NCBI RefSeq assembly: GCF_000020025.1 | Contig: NC_010629.1 | Coordinates: 1 to 26,419 of the forward strand | Source: Nostoc punctiforme PCC 73102 | GTDB lineage: Bacteria > Cyanobacteriota > Cyanobacteriia > Cyanobacteriales > Nostocaceae | Length of the DNA stretch: 26,419 nt | Direction of reading: 5' to 3' | Shown here: positions 4,018 to 20,742 of the stretch, piece by piece | How the letters are laid out: the number at the start of each line of letters is the position of its first letter | How positions within the stretch are numbered: the stretch's first letter is position 1 | Notes under the pieces: generated by a model | Told to the model about the DNA's origin: nothing | The model's database searches: none | Seen by the model: only the letters and a program-made list of their open reading frames with translations | Translations under genes and position numbers: made by a program

Positions 4018-6657
4018 CTAGAGGGAAATTCCTTTACTCTGTCTTCTTTCTTGTTGCCGCTTTTCTTCTATTATTTGTTGCAATATACGCTCTGCTTTTT
4101 GCCAAAGCTGAATATCTTCTCTTTCTATTTCCCCCACATTAATCGGTGAATACTCAAGCTTACCTGAATGGTTTCGGTTAACTGCCACCCGAAAAATTTC
4201 ACCTCGTTCATCATGGGTAAATACCAGTTCTTTCCCCTGCTTTTCCAGAGTGGCACGTTTAAATCTAAGGCTATTCTCACTACTTTCTTTTAATTGCCAA
4301 TTGATGAGTTCAACAGCAATAGGCACAGCTATAGCTAATAATTCTTGCTCTTGACGCTGCTTTTCTGTGAGTGAATTTTCTGGCTCTGACTTTTGAGTTG
4401 CCAGTTGATTGCTAGCGATAAGTACCAATTCTCTGGCTTCATCTTGTGTCCATCCGGCTGGACTGGCTTTGAGAATTTCTTCAACATCTTGGGGTAGTTT
4501 ATTATCTTTGAGCGCCTGTATAGCAATTTCTTTATCTCGGTCAGTCACTAATAAGTTTTGCAAATCGGTGCTGTAATACTCATATAATTCTGCTGTTTGA
4601 TTAGATTTTAGCTTTAGTTTATCTATGGCTAAATTTTGAGCTTTATTAAGAGCAATTGCATCCACTGTTTTTTGCGATCTATGGAGTTGCTCCAAATAAA
4701 CAATCGCTGCTTCCAGGTTGTCGAATATGGTTCTTCCGGCTTCTACCTGCTGCTGATTTTGAGAAAGTTGTTGTGTTAATTCTAATACTGTTTCAGTTAA
4801 TGCTGAAGAGACAGTCGATTGCTCAATATAATCAAAAATTGATGAAATGGCTCTCTTCTCTAGATATGATTGTAACTCATTCGCAAGCACTGCATTCAGG
4901 TCATTAAATGTAGCTTTAGCTGTAACAAGCTGCTCTTTGTATTGAGAAAGTTGTTGCGTTAATTCTAATACTGCTTCAGTTAAGGCTGACTCGACAGTTG
5001 ATTGCTCAATATAATCATATATTGATAAGATAGCTTTCTTCTCTGCATGGGATTGCAACTCAGCCGTCAACGCTGTTTCAAAGTCATTGAATGTAGTTTT
5101 CGCTTCAACTAACTGCTGATGATATTGAGAAATTTGCTGTGTTAATCCTAATACTGTTTCAGTTAAAGCTGACTCGATAGTTGATTGCTCAATATAATCA
5201 TATATTGATAAAATAGCTCTCTTCTCTGGATGAGATTGTAACTCAGCCGTCAATGCTTCATCAAAGTCATTAAATGTAGTTTTCGCTTCAAGTAGCTGCT
5301 GATGATATTGAGACAGTTGCTCTGTTAATCCTAATACTGCTTGGCTTAAAGCAGATTCGATAGTTGATTGCTCAATATAATCAGAGATTGACAAAATGGC
5401 TTTTTTCTCTGCGTGGGATTGCAACTCAGTCGTTAACCCTGTTTCAAAGTCATTGAATGCAGTTTTAGCTCGAAGGAGTTGCTGCCGATAAATAGATAGT
5501 TGTTCTGTTAATTGTGGCAACGTTTCAGCTAAAGTATCATCAACTGCTGACTGTTCAATAAAGTTAGAGATTGTATTTATGAGTTCTGAACTGGCTTGTT
5601 GTTCTGCATCTGATTTAGCTGGATTTATCTGGTGTTTATTTTCAGCTATAGCTTGAGCTTTTTTCGGGAATATGGTTGGTATTAGCTCTTGATTAAGTTG
5701 GCTGTTATCTACAGAATCTAAGAAATTATTTAAGTGTTTAATTTCGCTATCGTCCCGTTTGGGGTCGTAATTTATCCCCAATTCTGTCTGAAGCTTTGTA
5801 AATGAACACTTATATTTATTGAGATTACCTCCCTGTTTCCAGAGGAAACGGGGGCTACCATCTTCATTAACTGAGCCGACATCAATGCCAAACTTGATGC
5901 CCCTTACCCCACCGTGACCGTAATAACTAACGACAGCTTTGACGTGATACTCTCTCCATAACTGCTCAATTAGCTGGGGCATTGTGGGTTTATTTACTGC
6001 CACTTGCTCAATCGCCCGTCGCATTATTTCTTCGCCTGGAAGTCCATCGCATTCGACTCGTTCCAGTTGATTACGAGTCATAGCCTTTTGCTTACTCTCC
6101 CAACTGCTTTGAACTTGGGTTAGCTGAAATTCTCGCTCTAGCAGTCGGGCGGAGTGTTCAGAGTGGGCGTAATTATTCCAAGTGCGGATAGATTTACCAT
6201 CTAGGTTATTGACTCTAGATGCAACGATGTGAGTGTGGTCGTGTTCTTTATCAGAGTGCCGCGCTATAAAGAAGTCATAGGCTGGTAGTTCTGATTCTAT
6301 GAAGTCATCAACTAGCTGTTTTAGTTTGGTATCTGATATTCTTTTTTCTGGCTGTTTAACTTGGGATTCATCACCTTGAAGCCGCGATAGTACAATGACC
6401 GATGCCAAGTGACGTTGAGACAGATTAGCTAATTCGTCATCATTTAGCGTTCTATCACTTTTTGGTACACTAAGCATTAAGTGATAGCATGGGTCTTTTA
6501 GCTGCGGGTTAAGATGGGCTGATAAGGTAAACTGGTCAACCAATTCATTGGTACTTCTCCCGTACATATTCCCGCCAATAATTTTGGCTTTCTCTTTTTC
6601 AAGCACATATTTAGTAGTGCCACGAAATGATTTATTAGCCTTAACTTTGGTAATCAT
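4018..6657 (-). CDS. Relaxase/mobilisation nuclease (MobA/VirD2-type N-terminal domain) with a long repeat-containing C-terminal extension (879 aa)
   Basis: N-terminal KSFRGTTKYVLEKEK (catalytic-Tyr motif region) and the His triad RHSDKEHDHTHIV (HxDxxxHxH). Overlaps the upstream mobC by 17 nt. The middle third is five 61-aa helical repeats. Confidence 0.9.
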   Translation of the reverse strand: MITKVKANKSFRGTTKYVLEKEKAKIIGGNMYGRSTNELVDQFTLSAHLNPQLKDPCYHLMLSVPKSDRTLNDDELANLSQRHLASVIVLSRLQGDESQVKQPEKRISDTKLKQLVDDFIESELPAYDFFIARHSDKEHDHTHIVASRVNNLDGKSIRTWNNYAHSEHSARLLEREFQLTQVQSSWESKQKAMTRNQLERVECDGLPGEEIMRRAIEQVAVNKPTMPQLIEQLWREYHVKAVVSYYGHGGVRGIKFGIDVGSVNEDGSPRFLWKQGGNLNKYKCSFTKLQTELGINYDPKRDDSEIKHLNNFLDSVDNSQLNQELIPTIFPKKAQAIAENKHQINPAKSDAEQQASSELINTISNFIEQSAVDDTLAETLPQLTEQLSIYRQQLLRAKTAFNDFETGLTTELQSHAEKKAILSISDYIEQSTIESALSQAVLGLTEQLSQYHQQLLEAKTTFNDFDEALTAELQSHPEKRAILSIYDYIEQSTIESALTETVLGLTQQISQYHQQLVEAKTTFNDFETALTAELQSHAEKKAILSIYDYIEQSTVESALTEAVLELTQQLSQYKEQLVTAKATFNDLNAVLANELQSYLEKRAISSIFDYIEQSTVSSALTETVLELTQQLSQNQQQVEAGRTIFDNLEAAIVYLEQLHRSQKTVDAIALNKAQNLAIDKLKLKSNQTAELYEYYSTDLQNLLVTDRDKEIAIQALKDNKLPQDVEEILKASPAGWTQDEARELVLIASNQLATQKSEPENSLTEKQRQEQELLAIAVPIAVELINWQLKESSENSLRFKRATLEKQGKELVFTHDERGEIFRVAVNRNHSGKLEYSPINVGEIEREDIQLWQKAERILQQIIEEKRQQERRQSKGISL
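4690..5605 (-). repeat. Five tandem 183-bp (61-codon) repeats inside the relaxase gene
   Basis: The marker gattgctcaatataatca recurs at 4817, 5000, 5183 and 5366, and degenerate at 5549, with an exact 183-bp period. Peptide unit ILSIYDYIEQSTIESALTETVLGLTQQISQYHQQLVEAKTTFNDFETALTAELQSHAEKKA. Central copies are most similar to each other. Confidence 0.9.
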
Positions 6658-14533: not shown

Positions 14534-14815
14534 TTAAAAGCTACCCATTGGGACAAATTTCTTAGCTTGTGGTGATGGCTGAGGTTTGATAGATGGTGGC
14601 TGAAGAGTGCTGTGTGTAGGCGTTTGAGCTACTAGAGATGACTGTATAGGTAGTTGGTGTGAGTGCTTTAAGCAATTAACTAGACAATCACCGTAATTGA
14701 CCAACAGTAAGGTAAACAGTTGAGAGAGGTTATCAATTCCAGTCGCTTCTAAAATTTCTTCGGCTTTGGGCTTGTACTTGGGATTAAGAACAATTCTTGT
14801 TTGCGTCATTGGCAT
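14534..14815 (-). CDS. Ribbon-helix-helix protein, ParR-like adaptor candidate
   Basis: TRIVLNPKYKPKAEEILEATGIDNLSQLFTLLLVNYG fits a strand-helix-helix pattern, followed by a Pro/Gln-rich tail. The start overlaps the parM-like stop (TAATG). Confidence 0.6.
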   Translation of the reverse strand: MPMTQTRIVLNPKYKPKAEEILEATGIDNLSQLFTLLLVNYGDCLVNCLKHSHQLPIQSSLVAQTPTHSTLQPPSIKPQPSPQAKKFVPMGSF

Positions 14816-15852
14816 TACTCCTGATAAGCCATTGCAATGATGTTGAACAACTGCGGCGATGGGGCAATCTTAAAGCGATCTCCAGAAGTTGCACAGATAG
14901 GGGCGGCGATATCTGCACTTCCACCTACAATCAAGACTTCTCCCAACTCTGGTAGGTGTTGCGCCCACTTCGAGCGAATTTCTCTCCGGGCTGACTCCAC
15001 CCACTGGTCACAGGCTTTTTCAAAGATGGAGGAGAAATCAAGTTTGTCTGTCCCGTAGAGGCAATCACCACGAGCGATCGCGTCCATGATGCCCTGTAAA
15101 CTGGGGCTGTAATCGAGAGAATAAACTTCTTTCATCTCTACCGCTACTTGCTGGGCGAGTGCCTTGGTTCCGGGTAGAATCACCTCCGCATCATGGATCA
15201 TGGTTCCGTTCGGCGTGTAAATTCTGGCTATAGCCGTGCCTCCCCCTAAATCCCAAATCGCGTTCTTCGCTTCGGGGAAGCTGAAAAATCCTTGATTTAA
15301 GGCGTAATGAAATGCTGGCTCAGTCTCATCAACTGGGACAACTTCACCCACGGTATAGGTGATGTATTCGCCATTGCGTTTAAATTCTTTGGTCAGTGGG
15401 TGGTTAGCAATTCGCTTCACTGCGACTACATCATCATCATTGAGAGTATTGGGCAGTGCCACAATCATCTGTTGGATGTGTACTGATGTTTGTCCTGGAT
15501 TTGGCTGGATTGCCGCTAGTGCCAGGATAGATGCTAATTGGCATTTGTCTGTTTGGAAAGTCGGCTCACCACCTAGTTCTTGAGCTAATCGCCCAATTAC
15601 AAAGCGTTTACCATCAATTTCAATCAATACTGACTGGTCATCGGGCTTGAGCCGCTTCCACTGGTATTCACTGACCTCTTTTACAACACTGAGTAAACAT
15701 TGCACAACGTTGTTGGGGTCAATCCACTTCACAAAACGGTTGCCCCCATCAAAAACTACTCGCGGTCTTATCTGTCCGTGCTGTGGACTTACAAACCCGT
15801 TACTTGTCGGATAGGATGAGCCGTAAACTGGCTGAATATATGCGTTTGTCAT
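14815..15852 (-). CDS. parM: Actin-like segregation ATPase (ParM/Alp family)
   Basis: Actin-fold motifs VVFDGGNRFVKW (phosphate 1), IWDLGGGTAIA (phosphate 2) and VLIVGGSA (adenosine). 345 aa. Confidence 0.8.
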   Translation of the reverse strand: MTNAYIQPVYGSSYPTSNGFVSPQHGQIRPRVVFDGGNRFVKWIDPNNVVQCLLSVVKEVSEYQWKRLKPDDQSVLIEIDGKRFVIGRLAQELGGEPTFQTDKCQLASILALAAIQPNPGQTSVHIQQMIVALPNTLNDDDVVAVKRIANHPLTKEFKRNGEYITYTVGEVVPVDETEPAFHYALNQGFFSFPEAKNAIWDLGGGTAIARIYTPNGTMIHDAEVILPGTKALAQQVAVEMKEVYSLDYSPSLQGIMDAIARGDCLYGTDKLDFSSIFEKACDQWVESARREIRSKWAQHLPELGEVLIVGGSADIAAPICATSGDRFKIAPSPQLFNIIAMAYQE

Positions 15853-15990
15853 GGTGCAGATTTTAGAGTTAATCCTTTGATTGATAAGCGTTTGCGGTCA
15901 ATTTTAGGCGGCTACTAAGTCCACTACCTATTTATCCTTGGTGTGGCATTTCACGCGCTTCATCGTCCGTTTTGCGCTCATGTCTATAAC

Positions 15991-16033
15991 TTAGCACATT
16001 AATTCACTTTGCACATTAGTGAAATAGTGAATT
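15991..16033. promoter_or_regulatory. Repeat cluster upstream of the parM-like gene (parC/operator candidate)
   Basis: gcacatta at 15994 and 16011. aattcact (16001-16008) is inverted to agtgaatt (16026-16033), with an extra agtgaaat at 16018. Confidence 0.4.
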
Positions 16034-16109
16034 TACAGCATAGTTACTTATCGATATGCAAAAATGAATAATGAAAATTAATACAATATTTCACTAAATT
16101 AGATTTAAT

Positions 16110-16259
16110 ATGACTGAGAAGCAAGTATTTGTGAGGGGGAAGATAAGTGAATCTCAAAAAGCAAGATTTAAAGCTGCTTGCGCCCTAATAAATAGACCTA
16201 TGGATGAAGTGATGGCAGAGCTTATTGAAGAATGGCTTAAAACTCAAGACATTAAATAG
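16110..16259 (+). CDS. Unlisted 49-aa ribbon-helix-helix (CopG-like) protein
   Basis: MTEKQVFVRGKISESQKARFKAACALINRPMDEVMAELIEEWLKTQDIK* shows the strand/helix/helix pattern typical of RHH repressors. It is below the 60-aa ORF-track cutoff. No strong SD sequence. Confidence 0.55.
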   Translation: MTEKQVFVRGKISESQKARFKAACALINRPMDEVMAELIEEWLKTQDIK

Positions 16260-16825
16260 AAATGAACTAAATCAGTACATACGTATTGACTTTTAGTACT
16301 TTAGTACTGCAAGTCCATTAAAATTGATACTGTTTCAATCTTTATAATGCTTGCAAAATAAGCATAATTCTTAAAAAGACATTGCTAAAAATATTAGTAA
16401 CGTCATGTACTCGTATGGCTTTTAATGTTATTAAAAAGCTTGTAAAAGCTTGTTCTGCCTGGAATTAAAGATAAAAAATAAATTATTTTATTTTGGAAAG
16501 TCGCACATTTACTATTTATTTTTATGGAAGATAAATTACTATGTAATAAGACTATACCCTTAGTCCATCTTTTCTAAGTGTCATGTCACCAGATATACAT
16601 AAGGAAAGAATGCCTCCCCGGACTCAACTTGCTTCTAACAAGTTGTTTAACAGTCCCAGAAGACACCTCTTTGTTTGAATTGATAAATATTCAAATTTCT
16701 TTATAACCTAATGCTAGCAGTTCCGAGAACTTCCTACAACGGGTTTAACAAGAAATTTGATTAAAATTTTGGTGAATCTTCAGGGGAGGTAAAGCCCACA
16801 CAATTTACCTCACAAGGATTTCACA
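16260..16825. promoter_or_regulatory. Long AT-rich intergenic region upstream of the primase-helicase gene; candidate vegetative origin / promoter region
   Basis: Tandem ttagtact x2 (16293-16308) and tandem aaaagcttgt x2 (16434-16453). Nearly pure A/T run at 16463-16494. IR caacttg-N6-caagttg near 16626. Confidence 0.35.
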
Positions 16826-19800
16826 ATGGTAGCCATTTTAAAAGGACAGGAAACTGTTGGCGGTTCCGCTATGCCAGGGGCGTTCGCCTCCTTCGACATC
16901 CGAAATTTTCAAGACCAGCTAGAACCGTCCAAAGAAAAAGGCAAGTACATCTGCCCCGTTTGCGGGGGGCATAACTTATCTATCGTCCCAGAAACCGGAA
17001 AGTATCAATGCTTCAATAATTGTGAGTGCAAGGACATCCGAGAGGCAATCAAACCTTGGGATGAAGTGCTGGCAGAGCGACAAAAAACTAATTTCAGTGC
17101 AGCACCAAACAAAAACCCAATCAGAGTTAAGACGGTCAAGCCCAACCCAACCCCAATTCCAGATGGCGAATTAGGTTTGGTAATGTTGACCGAGCCAGCA
17201 ACCAATATTCCCCAACCTCAAAAATTAAAGAGTAAGCGAAAGGGCATCCCCGGAAACGCAACCGAAACAACCTATCAATACTCCCCAACCCAATGGATTG
17301 ACCGTTACGAATGGGCAGACACCAGTAAAGAGAAAGGTTATGACAAGAGTTTTCGGCAATGGCATAGACTCCCCGACGGCACACCAGAAATGAAGAAGGG
17401 TGATCAACCTTGGGGGGCATATCGCATTGATGAAGCGCTAGCCTGTGCTAAATCTGTGACGGGAACCTCGGCACTACTCCAGCATGAAGGTGAGGGATGC
17501 GTAGAAGTTGGTCGGGAGCATGGTCTTGCTGGGATTACGTTTCAGGGCAGTGCATGGGATAAAAAGACTATCACGCCCGAATATCAACGTGCTTTGGATT
17601 CAGGCATAGGATTAATCGTTTTTCTGCACGATGCTGACGACACTGGCTTAAAGAAACTCCAGACCTGCCAGGACTGTGCCGACGAAGTGGGAATTGCATT
17701 TATTGGAATTAACCCTCACGACATCTGCCCCGATTTACCATATAAATCAAGTGATATCAAAGAAATCTTGGGGCAGATGGAAACACCAGAATTTATCCGC
17801 AGGTTAGAGCAGGAGATCCACGCGGCTGTGGCAGAGCGTGAGCAACTGGCAAAGCTGCAAAATTTTGATGATCCTTTAAATGATCTTGATCCAGTTGTCA
17901 GCTTCATTCAAATTGCTTTCAAAACTCTCTATGGCGATAAGAGTTGGATTTGTGCTGCGGATAGGCTCTACTGGCATACTGGCAACCACTACAAACACTC
18001 TCCTGATGACACAGAGCGTAGACGAATCACCAATTTTTGTAATTCATTTGCAGTTGAAAATGAGCAAGGTAAAAAATCCTATCCTTACGCTTCACCCAGT
18101 TCAGTTAAGAAGGTTCTAGAGTGGGCAAAAATGCGAACGGGAATTGAGGCAGAATTACTCAATCCACCAGGGATTAATTGCACTAATGGGATAGTTAGAC
18201 CCGTTTTGATAGGTAATAAGGTTATTCCACGGCTAGACCCTCATACCCCCGAAGATTACTTTATTTATGAACCGTTGATTGAGTACAATCCAAACGCTGA
18301 TACTACAGATTGCGACCGATTACTTGAGTGTTTGGATAGACCCCAGCAAGAAATTCTTTTAAGAAATCTTGCCGCTTCGATTGACCTTAAAACTGTTAGG
18401 AAGCTCAGAGGAAGAGAGGTAAAAGCAATTCTAGCAGTTGGGCTTGGGTCTAACGGTAAAGATGCTCTGCGCGAGTGTGTATCAATCATTTACGGCGAAA
18501 ATGGACTAACTTCTGTCTCTTTAGCAGACTTCCAATTGTACGACGAAGGCAGGAAGTTTAACTTAGCTCCATTGATGCACAGCAGGGTAAATTGGGCATC
18601 AGAAAACCCACAAACGTCGAGAATCGACAAGATTCAAAGCTTAAAATTATTTGTAACTGGTAACAAGTTGCATTGTGAACGGAAGGGTAAAGACCATATT
18701 GAGTTTACCCCTGAAGCCATAGGTATTTTTAACTTGAATGAAACACCATCATTACAAGGAGTAATGAAAGCAATTCAAGATAGGATTGCAGTTTTAGAGT
18801 TTAAGAAAACCTTTGAAAAAAATCCAGATCCTAACAACCCAAATGAATTACTAGCTGATCCCCGCTTTGCTTACGACAAGGAATTTATCAGAACGAAAGT
18901 AGCCCCAGCATTTCTAAATAAAATGCTGCAAGCACTTAATGACCTGATAGAAGAAGGCATTGATTACGAATGTACAACTGATGCTTTCTACAACCTTCAG
19001 AAAGAAAATAATCACCTATTTGACTTCATAGAAGCCGCAAACTTATGTTATGTCCCTGGTAAGGAACTGACTGCAAAAGAGCTATGGGTAAGACTGGAAC
19101 ATTACTACACTCAAACTGGCACATTAACTATAGATTCCGATAACAACCGCAGAACGTGGAGCGAACAGGTTAGACCCAGTGACAAAAACGTAAAGGGCAT
19201 TAACCAAGTCATCGCCAGAATCGCTCAACTCTTCCCCAAGGCTGTCAAGGGAACTAGGTACTGTGACATTGCTAAAAGAAACATTCCAGTACTCAAAGGC
19301 ATTGGCATTTTGGAAGTTACCCGCACCACATTAGACGAAACCCGCACCACTTCCGCACCACTTTCCGCACCAGAAACAACGCATTATCAGGACTTCCGCA
19401 CCACCCGCACCACTTTTTCAGATTCCCAGGAAAAAAACATTGAAGAGTCAGAAATGAAAATTCAATCGCTTCCTATCCCAATGGAAAAAGAAGAATATGC
19501 CACCTCAACTGGTGCGGGTGATGCGGAACCCTTGCTAGATAGGGAAAACTGCTGCGGGGAGTCCTGCGTCAGTGGTGCGGATCAACTAGAAAGTGGTGCG
19601 GGTATGCCAACTGATGATCAGGCAGCGATCGCCGCGCCAATTGCATCCGATACTGTTTTGGTAAAAGCTGAGGACGAGAACTTATACTCACTGTTGCAGA
19701 TTGAAATCGACGGCGGGAACATTGCAGGGTTTGTTGGTTGCCAAGTTGAGGTGCGATCGCTTAGTGGTGCGGTCAAGTTCGCAGGTGAGATGATTAACTA

Positions 19801-19885
19801 CGACTCTAAGAATGGAATTGTGACTGTGGCCACCTCGCAAGGGAACCGAGATGCATCTCTTTGCGAGACGTTTGTAATTGACTAA
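16826..19885 (+). CDS. Bifunctional replicative primase-helicase (zinc finger + TOPRIM + D5/P4-type SF3 NTPase), 1019 aa
   Basis: CPVCGGHNLSIVPETGKYQCFNNCEC zinc finger. TOPRIM LLQHEGEGC ... VFLHDADDTG. Walker A AVGLGSNGKD and ...NWASENP...LFVTGNKLHCERKGKD...FNLNETP, typical of phage/plasmid primase C-terminal domains. AAGGA lies 9 nt upstream. Confidence 0.9.
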   Translation: MVAILKGQETVGGSAMPGAFASFDIRNFQDQLEPSKEKGKYICPVCGGHNLSIVPETGKYQCFNNCECKDIREAIKPWDEVLAERQKTNFSAAPNKNPIRVKTVKPNPTPIPDGELGLVMLTEPATNIPQPQKLKSKRKGIPGNATETTYQYSPTQWIDRYEWADTSKEKGYDKSFRQWHRLPDGTPEMKKGDQPWGAYRIDEALACAKSVTGTSALLQHEGEGCVEVGREHGLAGITFQGSAWDKKTITPEYQRALDSGIGLIVFLHDADDTGLKKLQTCQDCADEVGIAFIGINPHDICPDLPYKSSDIKEILGQMETPEFIRRLEQEIHAAVAEREQLAKLQNFDDPLNDLDPVVSFIQIAFKTLYGDKSWICAADRLYWHTGNHYKHSPDDTERRRITNFCNSFAVENEQGKKSYPYASPSSVKKVLEWAKMRTGIEAELLNPPGINCTNGIVRPVLIGNKVIPRLDPHTPEDYFIYEPLIEYNPNADTTDCDRLLECLDRPQQEILLRNLAASIDLKTVRKLRGREVKAILAVGLGSNGKDALRECVSIIYGENGLTSVSLADFQLYDEGRKFNLAPLMHSRVNWASENPQTSRIDKIQSLKLFVTGNKLHCERKGKDHIEFTPEAIGIFNLNETPSLQGVMKAIQDRIAVLEFKKTFEKNPDPNNPNELLADPRFAYDKEFIRTKVAPAFLNKMLQALNDLIEEGIDYECTTDAFYNLQKENNHLFDFIEAANLCYVPGKELTAKELWVRLEHYYTQTGTLTIDSDNNRRTWSEQVRPSDKNVKGINQVIARIAQLFPKAVKGTRYCDIAKRNIPVLKGIGILEVTRTTLDETRTTSAPLSAPETTHYQDFRTTRTTFSDSQEKNIEESEMKIQSLPIPMEKEEYATSTGAGDAEPLLDRENCCGESCVSGADQLESGAGMPTDDQAAIAAPIASDTVLVKAEDENLYSLLQIEIDGGNIAGFVGCQVEVRSLSGAVKFAGEMINYDSKNGIVTVATSQGNRDASLCETFVID
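19320..19413 (+). repeat. Six forward copies of CCGCACCAC inside the primase-helicase coding region
   Basis: Starts at 19321, 19342, 19353, 19365 (8/9), 19396 and 19405, with spacings of 21, 11, 12, 31 and 9 bp. The copies fall in two different codon phases (TRTT vs SAPL). Confidence 0.85.
19510..19772 (-). repeat. Reverse-orientation copies (GTGGTGCGG) of the same 9-mer, still inside the coding region
   Basis: Perfect copies at 19572, 19593 and 19764. 8/9 variants at 19509-19517 and 19518-19526. Confidence 0.8.
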
Positions 19886-20025
19886 GGAATGCAACTGGCC
19901 ATCGCTACTGTCGTGACTGCGCTTAATCGAAAGCACTTCTAAATTAGGTTGCTCCATGTCCTGTATGACTACCGAATTACAGGAGATTGCGAGTAAGCCA
20001 TCGTGTTGATTGATACCAATTTTCA

Positions 20026-20138
20026 ATGACTGTCAAAATGCGCCGTAAACTACCCCTAGTATCCCTCTACTGTACCCAATGACAGTCGTTTGACAGTCAT
20101 TGCCCAAAAACCCGATGACTGTCAAACGACTGTCGTTA
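20026..20138. repeat. GACTGTCA iteron / inverted-repeat cluster downstream of the primase-helicase gene
   Basis: atgactgtcaaa at 20026. atgacagtcgtttgacagtcat (20079-20100) carries two 11-bp-spaced copies. Its near-perfect reverse complement atgactgtcaaacgactgtcgt lies at 20115-20136 (21/22). Confidence 0.8.
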
Positions 20139-20246
20139 TACCCCCTAAAGGTGCTTTTGGGCGTATTTTCGCACCAGCCAGTAAGGGCGATTTCTCCCCC
20201 AAAAGTGGATTTCAGGGTTTTGTATAAGTGATACCATACTCACTAT

Positions 20247-20303
20247 GGTTTCATGCCCTGCGGGTGGCTGCGCCATCTCTCGCTCCGCTCGTGACATGAA
20301 ACC
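20247..20303. other. GC-rich hairpin upstream of the MOBV relic (possible relic oriT)
   Basis: ggtttcatg (20247-20255) pairs with catgaaacc (20295-20303) around a 39-nt GC-rich loop. Confidence 0.35.
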
Positions 20304-20365
20304 GCCGTTCGCCTAAAGGGGTTTTTTCGTACTACACTCGCACTGCATTTGTAGCATAATTTTTT

Positions 20366-20742
20366 ATGTCGCCACTAACAATTCTCAGGATTGAGAAACT
20401 AAAAACATTCGGCAACGTTGCGGGAAGTGATGACCATGTTACCAGAAACAGAGAAACACCCAACGCAGATCCAACGCTTATAGAATGTCCGGTTAATTGG
20501 GGGAGAAGACGAACGCGCACTCGAAGAGATAGTTAAAGAAAAAATCTCTACGCTACTGCATCGCCCTCGGCATGATGCAGTGTTATGCACTCTTCATGTT
20601 TCTCTCGGCATCACCTGAATATTTCCGTCCCGTTGATCCATCTCTTTATGGGCAGTGGTCTGATGAGAGGATCAGTATTGAGTCAGCCCTGACTGGCGCT
20701 CACGTCAAATTAGGGTTTTGGGGCGTTAGGCTATCTTCTTGA
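20366..20742 (+). pseudogene. Frameshifted, truncated relic of a MOBV (Pre/Mob) family relaxase
   Basis: Frame 1: MSPLTILRIEKLKTFGNVAGSDDHVTRNRETPNADPTLI (HxxR motif I). A +1 shift near 20483 gives NVRLIGGEDERALEEIVKEKISTLLHRPRHDAVLC. Another +1 near 20611 gives SPEYFRPV... There is no HxDE..PHxH motif before the stop at 20740-20742. Confidence 0.65.

Follow-up and report, generated by a model that had tools for sequence, protein, structure and literature searches.

A mirrored array of short iterons inside the rep gene of a Nostoc plasmid is a candidate replication origin

The primase-helicase gene rep of a Nostoc punctiforme PCC 73102 plasmid carries, within its own reading frame, twelve 8-9-bp iterons, six forward and six reverse, in mirror arrangement about a spacer (Table 1). 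Positions are those of the window, i.e. the whole analysed stretch of 26,419 nucleotides (NC_010629.1, positions 1 to 26,419). The repeated 9-mers are very likely binding sites of the plasmid's own primase-helicase, here called Rep, and the array is probably the vegetative replication origin of this Nostoc-type plasmid, or at least its Rep-loading site. On the best reading, the kind of origin is that of the self-loading SF3/D5-type primase-helicases (SaPI Rep, pRN1 ORF904, P4 alpha), embedded here in the rep frame; that Rep binds and melts the array, loads there as a double hexamer and starts replication is our inference. Our literature search returned no description of an origin for this cyanobacterial Rep family.

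Table 1. Features of rep and of the iteron array in the window
Feature	Position	Strand	Remarks
rep, 1019 aa	16826-19885	+	ORF
Winged-helix domain codons, aa ~745-828	19058-19309	+	From the AF2 model
Left arm, six forward iterons CCGCACCA	19321-19412	+	Starts 19321, 19342, 19353, 19365, 19396, 19405
Central spacer, 97 bp, A-rich on the coding strand, 36% GC	19413-19509		Candidate DNA-unwinding region
Right arm, six reverse iterons	19510-19601	-	Steps 9,31,12,11,21; mirror of left arm
Small C-terminal domain, aa ~940-1019	19643-19882	+	Swappable module
Extra unpaired reverse iteron TGGTGCGG	19765-19772	-	Within the C-terminal-domain codons

Start-to-start steps in the left arm are 21,11,12,31,9. 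The 9-mer CCGCACCAC is exact on the + strand of the window at 19321, 19342, 19353, 19396 and 19405, with an 8/9 copy, CCGCACCAG, at 19365; its 8-mer CCGCACCA is perfect in all six forward sites. The reverse 9-mer GTGGTGCGG is exact at 19572, 19593 and 19764 and matches at 8/9 positions at 19509 and 19518. Every position in the original prediction, which listed the six forward copies with these steps and three perfect plus two 8/9 reverse copies, was thereby recovered. As 8-mers, the right-arm sites are TGGTGCGG at 19510, 19573 and 19594 and TGATGCGG at 19519, joined by two degenerate sites of the six that the prediction did not include, TGCTGCGG at 19550 and TCCTGCGT at 19562. With these two counted, the reverse array is an exact mirror of the forward array, so that the whole forms an in-register interrupted palindrome: 21,11,12,31,9 / 97-bp spacer / 9,31,12,11,21. 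Aligned in register as reverse complements, the 92-nt arms are identical at 62 of 92 positions; this identity is limited to the motif positions, and the segments between motifs are not complementary.

That the 9-mer exceeds chance had been claimed and is borne out: with at most one mismatch it occurs 16 times in the window, against 2.19 ± 1.54 in shuffles (largest count 7; 0/100 reached 16), and 11 of the 16 matches fall in 19321-19772. The description of the replicon as AT-rich needs softening: at ~42% GC the window is only moderately so, the arms being ~58% GC and the spacer 36%. By 90-bp windows, the spacer falls in the bottom 5% of rep for stability and has the two top-ranking windows on either side; across the entire window, 14% of 90-bp windows are less stable than the spacer. 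A promoter/terminator scan of 19000-20300 gave nothing above chance within the array. It counts against the origin reading that the spacer is itself only moderately AT-rich (36% GC), and that a 28%-GC intergenic region upstream of rep (16000-16500) is less stable and could hold the true unwinding site.

As predicted, the forward sites are read in two codon phases, four as T-R-T-T and two as S-A-P. Among motif-sharing sequences, variable columns number 13 of 96 in motifs and 127 of 182 outside them in the same stretch (Fisher 4e-20), and third-codon positions vary at 3/34 within motifs compared with 163/199 in the upstream 600 nt (1e-16). Other lineages show the same base change in all twelve sites whatever the codon phase, a change that replaces T by P when read in one phase and is silent when read in the other. 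Judged from these comparisons, the motif DNA is evidently under purifying selection. The view that the repeat is conserved as DNA and not as peptide is supported by the nearly frozen synonymous positions and by lineage switches that ignore phase; when we asked whether homologues keep the peptide and lose the motif, the opposite was seen, the peptide drifting while motif and geometry persist. On this evidence, the further claim that the sites look like initiator-binding iterons inside rep holds up as a reading of the sequence.

We give practically no credence to the idea that the DNA itself has no function here and the segment is just a peptide repeat or a low-complexity linker generated by slippage. 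The array does encode a linker of low complexity, with much T, R, P, S and A, ahead of the small C-terminal domain, as had been stated, and AF2 confidence drops where it begins. A peptide repeat is rejected on comparative grounds, by one DNA word being read in two phases and on both strands, by the frozen third positions and phase-dependent lineage switches given above, and by the intergenic arrays of two relatives (L073 and L013).

The palindrome also gives the array a capacity to fold. As a 321-nt single strand its forward sites pair with their mirror partners (DNA -69.1 kcal/mol, z=-9.0; RNA -130.6 kcal/mol, z=-9.2), and between lineages the arms change in complementary fashion. The repeats could be stems, either in DNA, as a cruciform or a long hairpin with interruptions, or in RNA, within rep mRNA or an antisense RNA; a single-strand initiation signal and a stem-loop origin like that of pRN1 would be examples. 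pRN1 needs a ~100-bp stem-loop 3' of its primase-helicase gene, and compensatory mutations restore its replication (PMC4234260). We find this explanation improbable: the six helices would all be of one sequence and change in concert, which pairing does not demand. Within motif classes, 186 deviations from consensus lack compensation in the mirror partner and 3 are compensated, and 132 of 187 non-complementary cells are unable to pair on either strand. Deviations are thus almost never compensated across arms, pointing to selection on the consensus and not on pairing, and each site is held to the consensus as expected for protein recognition. The segments between motifs are not complementary, unpaired extra copies are present, extruding a cruciform with a loop of 97 nt from duplex DNA is improbable on general grounds, and an Rfam search of the array gave no family match. 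The hairpin potential is an automatic by-product of inverted iterons, which could still matter once the DNA is unwound.

The same location and arm-spacer-arm layout occur in ~90 related cyanobacterial loci (Nostocales, Oscillatoriales, Chroococcales). The Rep family is carried by many plasmids of Nostoc, Calothrix, Tolypothrix, Anabaena/Dolichospermum, Microcoleus, Laspinema and Cyanobacterium, with up to five members in a single Nostoc genome. At least ten different motifs are found among these loci, with all sites of one plasmid switched in concert; by lineage they are CCGCACCA, CCGCCCCA, CCGACCCA, CCACACCA, CCACCCC, GTTAACCCA, CGTAACCC, TGACGCA, GACTCAC and others. The window's iteron offsets (11,32,43,55,86,95 nt past the GIGI codons) recur in ~40 Nostoc-clade loci, where the spacer is 94-97 bp long, and its spacings are shared by many loci, including three with motifs unrelated to the window's (L014, L073, L082).

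Some arrays depart from this pattern: (i) Those of C. aponinum and Chroococcus have only rough mirror symmetry, and in L092 the arms are in swapped order. (ii) The L073 and L013 arrays are intergenic, the former beginning at the rep stop codon as in SaPIs; in the window that codon lies 576 nt past the end of the winged-helix domain (WHD), leaving the array inside rep. (iii) An extra reverse iteron like that at 19765 is shared by L001, L002, L015, L016 and L018-L021, while L004, L023 and L024 instead carry 2-4 extra reverse copies in 21/42/63-nt steps. (iv) A simple k-mer census detected no array in L051, L052, L054, L055, L081 and L091, nor within 1 kb downstream of rep in the Laspinema/Oscillatoria clade (L077-L085), where rep ends right after the WHD. 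In the 4.6-kb plasmid pAL20115e, every prominent repeat other than the in-rep array is simply AT-rich. Different motifs are found on plasmids of one strain in Nostoc C057 (L002, L007), FACHB-838 (four classes) and C. aponinum AL20115. The same 8-mer also occurs on two family members within one genome (L016/L020, L030/L037, L022/L036), which is not what one would expect of sites that also determine incompatibility.

Rep comprises, in order, an N-terminal Cys4 zinc-finger motif with a primase-like part, D5_N (Pfam, aa 364-502), an SF3/D5-type helicase (DUF5906, aa 538-642), the WHD, the array-encoded linker and the small C-terminal domain. Residues 20-376 share 36.6% identity with H55, whose annotation is CyRepA1 family. 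The TIGR01613 profile (P4-family primase C-terminal domain) matches aa 530-769 at 71.9 bits (E=4e-20), below its curated cut-off of 108.7, making Rep a relative of the P4 family and not a member by that threshold. An AF2 model of aa 500-835 (pLDDT 88.4) retrieved by Foldseek ASFV C962R (1.7e-12) and SaPI5 PriRep5 (7OLA, 1.8e-10 over 283 columns); according to the model, Rep is a structural homologue of PriRep5. Sequence and profile searches of Rep against PDB reached the helicase core weakly and the WHD never. In the model, the WHD has a helix at 792-800 and a beta hairpin at 807-813 / 818-828, with the wing tip K817-R818-N819 encoded at 19274-19282. The C-terminal domain has no Pfam match, and also ends DUF3987 and 'Primase 2' proteins (H70, H71).

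The WHD is a better candidate binder of the iterons than the C-terminal domain. The array starts 11 nt past the WHD codons, and residue 818, with which the second wing strand opens in the AF2 model, follows motif position 5 in 61 of 61 loci (R with A, K with C), with three coincident changes on the helicase-core tree. The wing codons are only ~40 nt from the array, so recombination could co-transfer both and give the R/K-A/C association without direct contact. The original prediction had assigned binding to the C-terminal domain (aa ~940-1019), which now seems unlikely, and this domain is ruled out as specificity determinant because the module is exchanged between plasmids regardless of motif class. 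By sliding identity, the C-terminal domains of L004 and L005 are 86-100% identical and their motifs differ (CCGCACCA vs CCGCCCCA); that of L007 is ~80% identical to the window's, yet the L007 motif is CCGACCCA. Nor does the N-terminal part of Rep track the motif, being the same in three motif classes.

Could the sites bind some other protein, forming a partition centromere for a ParM/ParG-like system or a target of DnaA or another host factor? Genes for a ParM-like protein and a ParG-like RHH protein adjoin rep, and type II centromeres are arrays of short repeats; the CCACACC class, moreover, resembles the core of the cyanobacterial DnaA box, TTTTCCACA. We nonetheless consider this very doubtful. 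The window, L001 and L002 have identical arrays but RHH proteins with no sequence relationship, for which reason the upstream ParG-like RHH was rejected as binder. A host factor fails to explain the differing motifs within Nostoc C057, FACHB-838 and C. aponinum AL20115, and motifs such as GTTAACCCA or GACTCAC are unrelated to DnaA boxes.

If the array is the origin, the WHD of Rep, encoded just upstream, would read the 8-9-bp iterons, and six opposed sites per side with mirror spacing would position two Rep hexamers flanking the 97-bp AT-rich centre. Melting of this centre would then allow the two helicase-primases to begin bidirectional theta replication. Unlike in SaPIs and pRN1, the rep frame continues past the WHD and through the array, so that the iterons and spacer are also translated, as a linker tethering the exchangeable C-terminal domain. 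The SaPI-like array position in L073 and the lack of a comparable repeat elsewhere in pAL20115e favour the origin reading; the swapped arms of L092, the negative census in the Laspinema/Oscillatoria clade, the same-motif pairs within one genome and the possible co-transfer of wing codons and array weigh against it.

The same Rep-binding evidence fits equally well with sites whose role is regulatory only, either in copy control by titration or handcuffing or as an intragenic transcriptional roadblock autoregulating full-length Rep, with the origin elsewhere, e.g. in the very AT-rich leader at 16260-16560. No DNA near rep is less stable than the intergenic region upstream of it (28% GC), and the unpaired reverse copies (19765 and the 2-4 more in L004, L023 and L024) resemble accessory control iterons. 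We rate a purely regulatory role as rather unlikely. The leader has no iteron array, and it follows the N-terminal primase third in plasmids with a different helicase/WHD module (H7-H11), so it is not matched to the WHD. A mirrored 6+6 array around an AT-rich centre beside the WHD codons is the SaPI origin layout (PMC9371898), and pAL20115e has no other comparable repeat. The co-residence of same-motif replicons in several genomes argues against strong iteron-mediated incompatibility.

Two neighbouring regions were set aside as origin candidates. No repeat array was found in the region upstream of rep (15853-16825), which co-travels with the N-terminal third of rep and not with the WHD. The TGACAGTC inverted repeats at 20024-20137 accompany mobV genes, and in L002 and L003 the DNA downstream of rep lacks them.

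More tentatively, we can envision a translated origin with a readable recognition code, in which a templated double hexamer, wing-set specificity and coupling of expression to firing hold jointly; all three together are a speculative proposition. Each of the six sites per arm would be occupied by one WHD from a Rep hexamer, with the DNA serving as template for a head-to-head double hexamer at fixed offsets (0, 9, 40, 52, 63, 84). Wing residue 818 (R or K), with its neighbours, would set the base at iteron positions 4-5, and plasmid lineages would diversify origin specificity by retuning twelve sites in concert with one or two residues. Ribosomes and RNA polymerase would have to cross the origin to make the C-terminal domain, mechanically coupling rep expression and firing, perhaps through transcriptional activation as in lambda, or through a Rep roadblock that yields C-terminally truncated Rep.

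An origin inside the rep reading frame is best read as a variant of the known SaPI/pRN1/P4-type origins. If rep carries its own origin, a minimal shuttle-vector replicon for filamentous cyanobacteria would consist of rep plus a promoter, and codon optimisation or 3' truncation of rep would destroy the origin. At least ten natural Rep/iteron pairs of differing specificity would then be available as orthogonal replicons, with a candidate specificity residue, and the 6+6 mirror geometry, kept across motif changes, would offer a natural system for studying double-hexamer assembly of self-loading SF3-type helicases. For annotation there is a caution: a segment labelled 'low-complexity linker' can be DNA that acts in cis.

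Among known systems we first compare the SaPI origin, which has 6-12 iterons beside rep with an AT-rich centre and opposite iteron directions on the two sides, read by a C-terminal WHD (Ubeda et al. 2007, 2012, via PMC9371898); how SaPI Reps assemble as double hexamers was left open (PMC9371898). In the SaPI type, Rep recognises its cognate iterons specifically and melts the origin without ATP, and rep with ori replicates autonomously; for such behaviour here, the tracking of the motif by wing residue 818 gives indirect support. Here likewise, six forward and six reverse short iterons are split by a 97-bp, 36%-GC spacer and adjoin the 3' side of the WHD codons, specificity is element-specific, and Rep has D5_N, DUF5906 and a modelled helix plus beta-hairpin wing (aa 792-828), with 7OLA as a Foldseek match (1.8e-10). 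The SaPI origin, however, is intergenic, directly downstream of rep, whereas the candidate here is inside the frame and translated, the relative L073 having its arrays at the SaPI position. Rep here has a further C-terminal domain past the array; its N-terminal primase part is like cyanobacterial CyRepA1 and not the SaPI primase; the iterons are 8-9 bp in a strict 6+6 mirror where those of SaPIs are 5-6 bp; the host element is a cyanobacterial plasmid and not a phage satellite; and sequence similarity is weak (phmmer E=9e-4).

Sulfolobus pRN1 encodes ORF904, a primase with SF3 helicase and winged helix, has a ~100-bp symmetric stem-loop directly 3' of rep, and is the subject of a proposed bidirectional double-hexamer model (PMC4234260). 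The initiator combination is the same here, and again a symmetric element able to fold lies 3' of the WH codons (-69.1 kcal/mol, z=-9.0). The pRN1 element is intergenic, and in it stem pairing matters and no iterons were identified, whereas here the consensus sites are kept and pairing is not (186 vs 3). The alpha protein of P4, from the work of Ziegelin and Lanka, reportedly binds octamer 'type I' iterons, TGTTCACC, direct and inverted, through its C-terminal domain. P4 has ori and crr as separate sites several kb apart, an arrangement of which there is no sign here. What is shared with P4 is a fused primase-helicase-DNA-binding initiator (TIGR01613-related at E=4e-20, below the curated cut-off) and 8-bp iterons in both orientations.

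Origins inside initiator genes have precedents. The lambda origin lies inside gene O, with four 19-bp direct iterons, and lambda needs transcriptional activation (PMC3985674); others are in repC of repABC plasmids (without iterons), pAD1, pLS32 and pSX267 (PMC3155836). The array lies inside rep and, if it is the origin, would be placed as in the lambda O, repC and RepA_N systems, with transcription of the initiator gene crossing the origin; those initiators, in contrast, are unrelated and recruit host DnaB, and both the 6+6 inverted array and a self-loading SF3 helicase are missing from all of them. CyRepA1 and CyRepA2 are Reps of cyanobacterial plasmids (Slr7037 of pSYSA, ORF B of pCC5.2), and pSYSA is under antisense RNA control (PMC9978351, PMC10079941). 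Like Rep, they initiate replication of cyanobacterial plasmids and begin with a primase-like part (over its first ~360 aa, Rep is 36.6% identical to H55), but they have DUF3854 and a DEXDc helicase in place of D5_N/DUF5906. The papers on them (PMC9978351, PMC10079941) describe no iterons. Classical iteron theta plasmids (Rep_3/RepA/pi/TrfA) differ in having ~17-22-bp one-way tandem repeats by an AT-rich region and DnaA boxes, where we find 8-9-bp inverted arrays with irregular mirrored spacing; their Rep_3-fold initiators are tandem winged-helix proteins without helicase, whereas Rep is a 1019-aa primase-helicase.

The 3′ part of rep, the gene for a 1019-aa primase-helicase (Rep), carries an array of 8-9-bp sites, six forward (left arm) and six reverse (right arm), on either side of a 97-bp spacer. 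The original prediction had read 9-mer repeats here as iterons or autoregulatory sites, and its coordinates and counts are correct: CCGCACCAC occurs in five exact forward copies and one 8/9 copy, spaced by 21, 11, 12, 31 and 9 and falling in two codon phases, and in three exact and two 8/9 reverse copies. With at most one mismatch allowed, the motif has 16 matches in the window; shuffled sequence gives 2.2 ± 1.5. When two degenerate reverse sites (TGCTGCGG and TCCTGCGT, in that order) are included, the reverse spacings become 9, 31, 12, 11 and 21, so that the reverse array mirrors the forward one exactly. The 92-nt arms, aligned in register as reverse complements, are identical at 62 of 92 positions, the identity being located in motif positions. 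The spacer has 36% GC and the arms ~58%; the spacer is among the least stable 5% of rep and is flanked by the two most stable segments of the gene; elsewhere in the window there is less stable DNA.

Coordinates of features in the window
Feature	Position	Strand	Details
ParM-like gene	14815-15852	divergent	neighbour of the ParG-like RHH gene
Leader of rep and N-terminal primase third	16000-17850		82-88% DNA identity with plasmids H7-H9
ParG-like ribbon-helix-helix (RHH) gene	16110-16259		49 aa; between the divergent ParM-like gene and rep; Pfam ParG, 25.2 bits
rep	16826-19885	+	1019 aa; Pfam D5_N aa 364-502, DUF5906 aa 538-642
Wing codons	19274-19282
Forward copies	19321-19413
Reverse copies	19509-19772
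Degenerate reverse sites	19550; 19562
HIP1 palindromes	19625-19632; 19753-19760		both in the 3′ part of rep
C-terminal module	19643-19882		last ~80 aa of Rep
Extra unpaired site copy	19765
Segment downstream of rep	19891-20664
Inverted-repeat cluster	20024-20137		directly downstream of rep
Repeat arms	20078-20100 / 20115-20137		96% complementary

Selection at the DNA level was assessed by comparing the window with five loci that have the same motif (L001-L004 and L008, the last with protein identity down to ~52%). Variable columns make up 13/96 of motif positions and 127/182 of non-motif positions in the same stretch (Fisher 4e-20), and third codon positions vary in 3/34 cases within motifs vs 163/199 in the 600 nt upstream (1e-16). 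The encoded peptide drifts, from TRTTLDETRTTSAPLSAP in the window to TRPTLESTRPIPAPLPAP in L005 and TRPSLTETRPSYDPVTDP in L007.

A less likely alternative is that base pairing is the selected feature: the strand folds as a long interrupted hairpin with mirror partners paired (z ~ -9, DNA and RNA parameters alike) and the two arms change in complementary fashion between motif classes. Inverted copies of one binding site are expected to do both, however, and three findings argue against selection for pairing. The six "helices" are one sequence, changing in concert. A count over three classes (38 distinct arrays) gave 186 cells departing from consensus in one arm only vs 3 that are compensated, these representing one event, and 132/187 non-complementary cells are unable to pair on either strand. 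Extra site copies without a partner also occur, in the window and in L004, L023, L024 and L042. No Rfam family matched the window.

We compared 14 plasmid loci, 80 genome loci and two plasmids of 4.4-4.6 kb. The position of the array is constant across the family (in the Nostoc clade it starts 11 nt past the conserved ...L-x-G-I-G-I domain end of Rep), the arm-spacer-arm layout is common to the family and the spacings are kept in many loci; the motif depends on lineage, and all twelve sites of a plasmid bear its variant.

Array motifs among the compared loci
Motif	Loci
CCGCACCA	window, L001-L004, L008, L015-L026 and others, L072, L089
CCGCCCCA	L005, L006, L028-L030, L033, L034, L037, L038
CCGACCCA	L007, L031, L032, L035, L039, L043, L047, L094
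CCACACC	L009-L011, L057-L062, L066-L068, L074, L076, L086, L092
CCACCCC	L013, L056, L071, L075, L090
GCACCCC	L063, L065, L069
GTTAACCCA	L014
CGTAACCC	L073
TGACGCA	L082
ACATAGCC	L088
GACTCAC	L095, pAL20115e
ATACCCA	L096, pAL20115f

L014, L073 and L082 keep the ...12,31-33,9 / ~100 / 9,31-33,12,... geometry with motifs unrelated to that of the window, and mirroring is only rough in the Cyanobacterium aponinum (L095) and Chroococcus (L088) arrays. Some arrays are peculiar: (i) In Rhizonema (L073) the mirror arrays start exactly at the rep stop codon, 281-578 nt past the end of the winged-helix domain (WHD), a SaPI-like position, with a very AT-rich spacer. (ii) Calothrix NIES-4101 plasmid4 (L013/L071) has, besides its in-gene arrays, a second, intergenic mirror array of AAACCACAT at 5808-6381, with spacings 33,21,20,20 / 20,20,20,21,33. 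(iii) In Limnofasciculus baicalensis (L092), 30-263 nt past the WHD end, the arm order is swapped: six reverse sites (9,31,12,11,21) precede the forward sites (21,11,12,32), with arms 57 bp apart, 9-bp doublets facing outward and no AT-rich centre between them. Apart from simply AT-rich repeats, the 4.6-kb pAL20115e has no prominent repeat other than its in-gene array. A simple census found no array in the Laspinema clade, where rep ends directly after the WHD, or in a few other loci. The metagenome-assembled Nostoc JTS-RE202 (L025) has a second complete six-site forward arm ~1385 nt downstream of the first, suggesting that its rep 3′ region is duplicated or rearranged. Single Nostoc genomes hold up to five family replicons (e.g. 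L021+L030+L037+L043+L062), mostly of different motif classes. Sometimes two members in one genome have the same 8-mer (L016/L020, L030/L037, L022/L036), so the 8-mer alone is not an incompatibility barrier.

A host factor is unlikely to read the sites, because motif classes differ among plasmids of one strain, as in Nostoc C057 (L002 vs L007), FACHB-838 (four classes) and C. aponinum AL20115. The ParG-like RHH protein was rejected: its sequence is essentially unrelated in the window, L001 and L002, where the arrays are identical and rep near-identical. As for Rep itself, L004, L005 and L007, which represent three motif classes, share 100% identity over aa 68-180, and the C-terminal domain (aa ~940-1019), the binder originally suggested, is exchanged irrespective of motif class; this leaves the central part as candidate reader.

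The C-terminal module, swapped among family members, has no Pfam match; it is also found at the C-terminal end of DUF3987 and "Primase 2" proteins of other cyanobacterial replicons (H70, H71), and other family members have different small modules.

An AlphaFold2 model of Rep aa 500-835 (33 sequences, pLDDT 88.4) places a winged-helix-like unit (helix 792-800, beta hairpin 807-813 / 818-828) after the ATPase core, and matches ASFV C962R (1.7e-12), SaPI5 PriRep5 (7OLA; 1.8e-10, 283 columns) and MPOX E5. Its confidence drops sharply at aa ~832, at the onset of the array-encoded segment. Residue 818, which opens the second wing strand, is R where motif position 5 is A and K where it is C, in 61/61 loci. 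Wings KRN and KRS go with CCGCACC, KKQ with CCGCCCC, KKD and KKS with CCGACCC, KRK and KRS with CCACACC, and KKT and KKG with CCACCCC; Cuspidothrix L072 (KRN, CCGCACC), examined separately from the 61, fits. On a neighbour-joining tree of the helicase core, wing excluded, residue and motif position each change three times, on the same branches. The wing codons and the first site are separated by ~40 nt, a distance over which recombination could co-transfer both. From this covariation, residue 818 is a candidate specificity residue.

By sequence, the window is a segment of a Nostoc-type plasmid: Nostoc plasmids are its best DNA matches, and it contains HIP1 (GCGATCGC) sites. Besides its one replication gene, it has an integrase, a relaxase and partition genes of ParA-like and ParM-like type. 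Against TIGR01613, the P4-family primase C-terminal model, Rep reaches E=4e-20, under the model's cut-off, and its first ~360 aa resemble H55, annotated as CyRepA1 family. Plasmids H7-H9 share the leader and N-terminal third despite a different helicase/DNA-binding part; rep is thus a mosaic of exchangeable modules. The second in-gene HIP1 palindrome is the sole invariant block in an alignment (A1) where two unrelated C-terminal domain types meet, and may be a recombination junction marker or a chance alignment anchor. Upstream, short tandem repeats particular to each plasmid occur in L001 and L003 (CATGAAAC and TAATCCTA); they are likely RHH or centromere sites. The inverted repeats TGACAGTC/GACTGTCA belong to a segment that other Nostoc plasmids carry beside mobV relaxase genes and that L002 and L003 lack downstream of rep. 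The segment is probably what remains of a MobV-type oriT, with no intact mobV ORF following the repeats in the window.

In SaPIs, Rep is a self-loading helicase and its C-terminal WHD recognises 6-12 iterons adjoining rep; the SaPI origin has an AT-rich centre with oppositely oriented iterons on its two sides, and two hexamers are proposed to load, one on each side (PMC9371898). The pRN1 origin is symmetric, ~100 bp, and directly 3′ of a primase-SF3-WH gene (PMC4234260). Ori-lambda, located in mid gene O, depends on transcription across it (PMC3985674), and several plasmids have oriV within the initiator gene (PMC3155836). The Rep array appears to combine features of all these. It would be a SaPI-like origin of 6+6 inverted iterons, sharing with SaPIs the placement straight after the codons of the WHD (here aa ~745-828); in the window the array is kept in frame, so that it also encodes the linker to the exchangeable C-terminal domain. 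Six sites per arm would fit one WHD per hexamer subunit. This reading sits less easily with the swapped arms of L092, with the Laspinema clade and the few other loci in which the census found no array, and with the genomes in which two members have one 8-mer. In the literature searched we found no description of an origin for this cyanobacterial D5_N/DUF5906 Rep family. Iteron origins of self-loading SF3-type initiators, and origins inside initiator genes, are already known; new are their combination as a translated 6+6 mirror array, a putative origin, in a primase-helicase gene, and the keeping of one geometry across at least ten presumed motif specificities, together with a candidate specificity residue.
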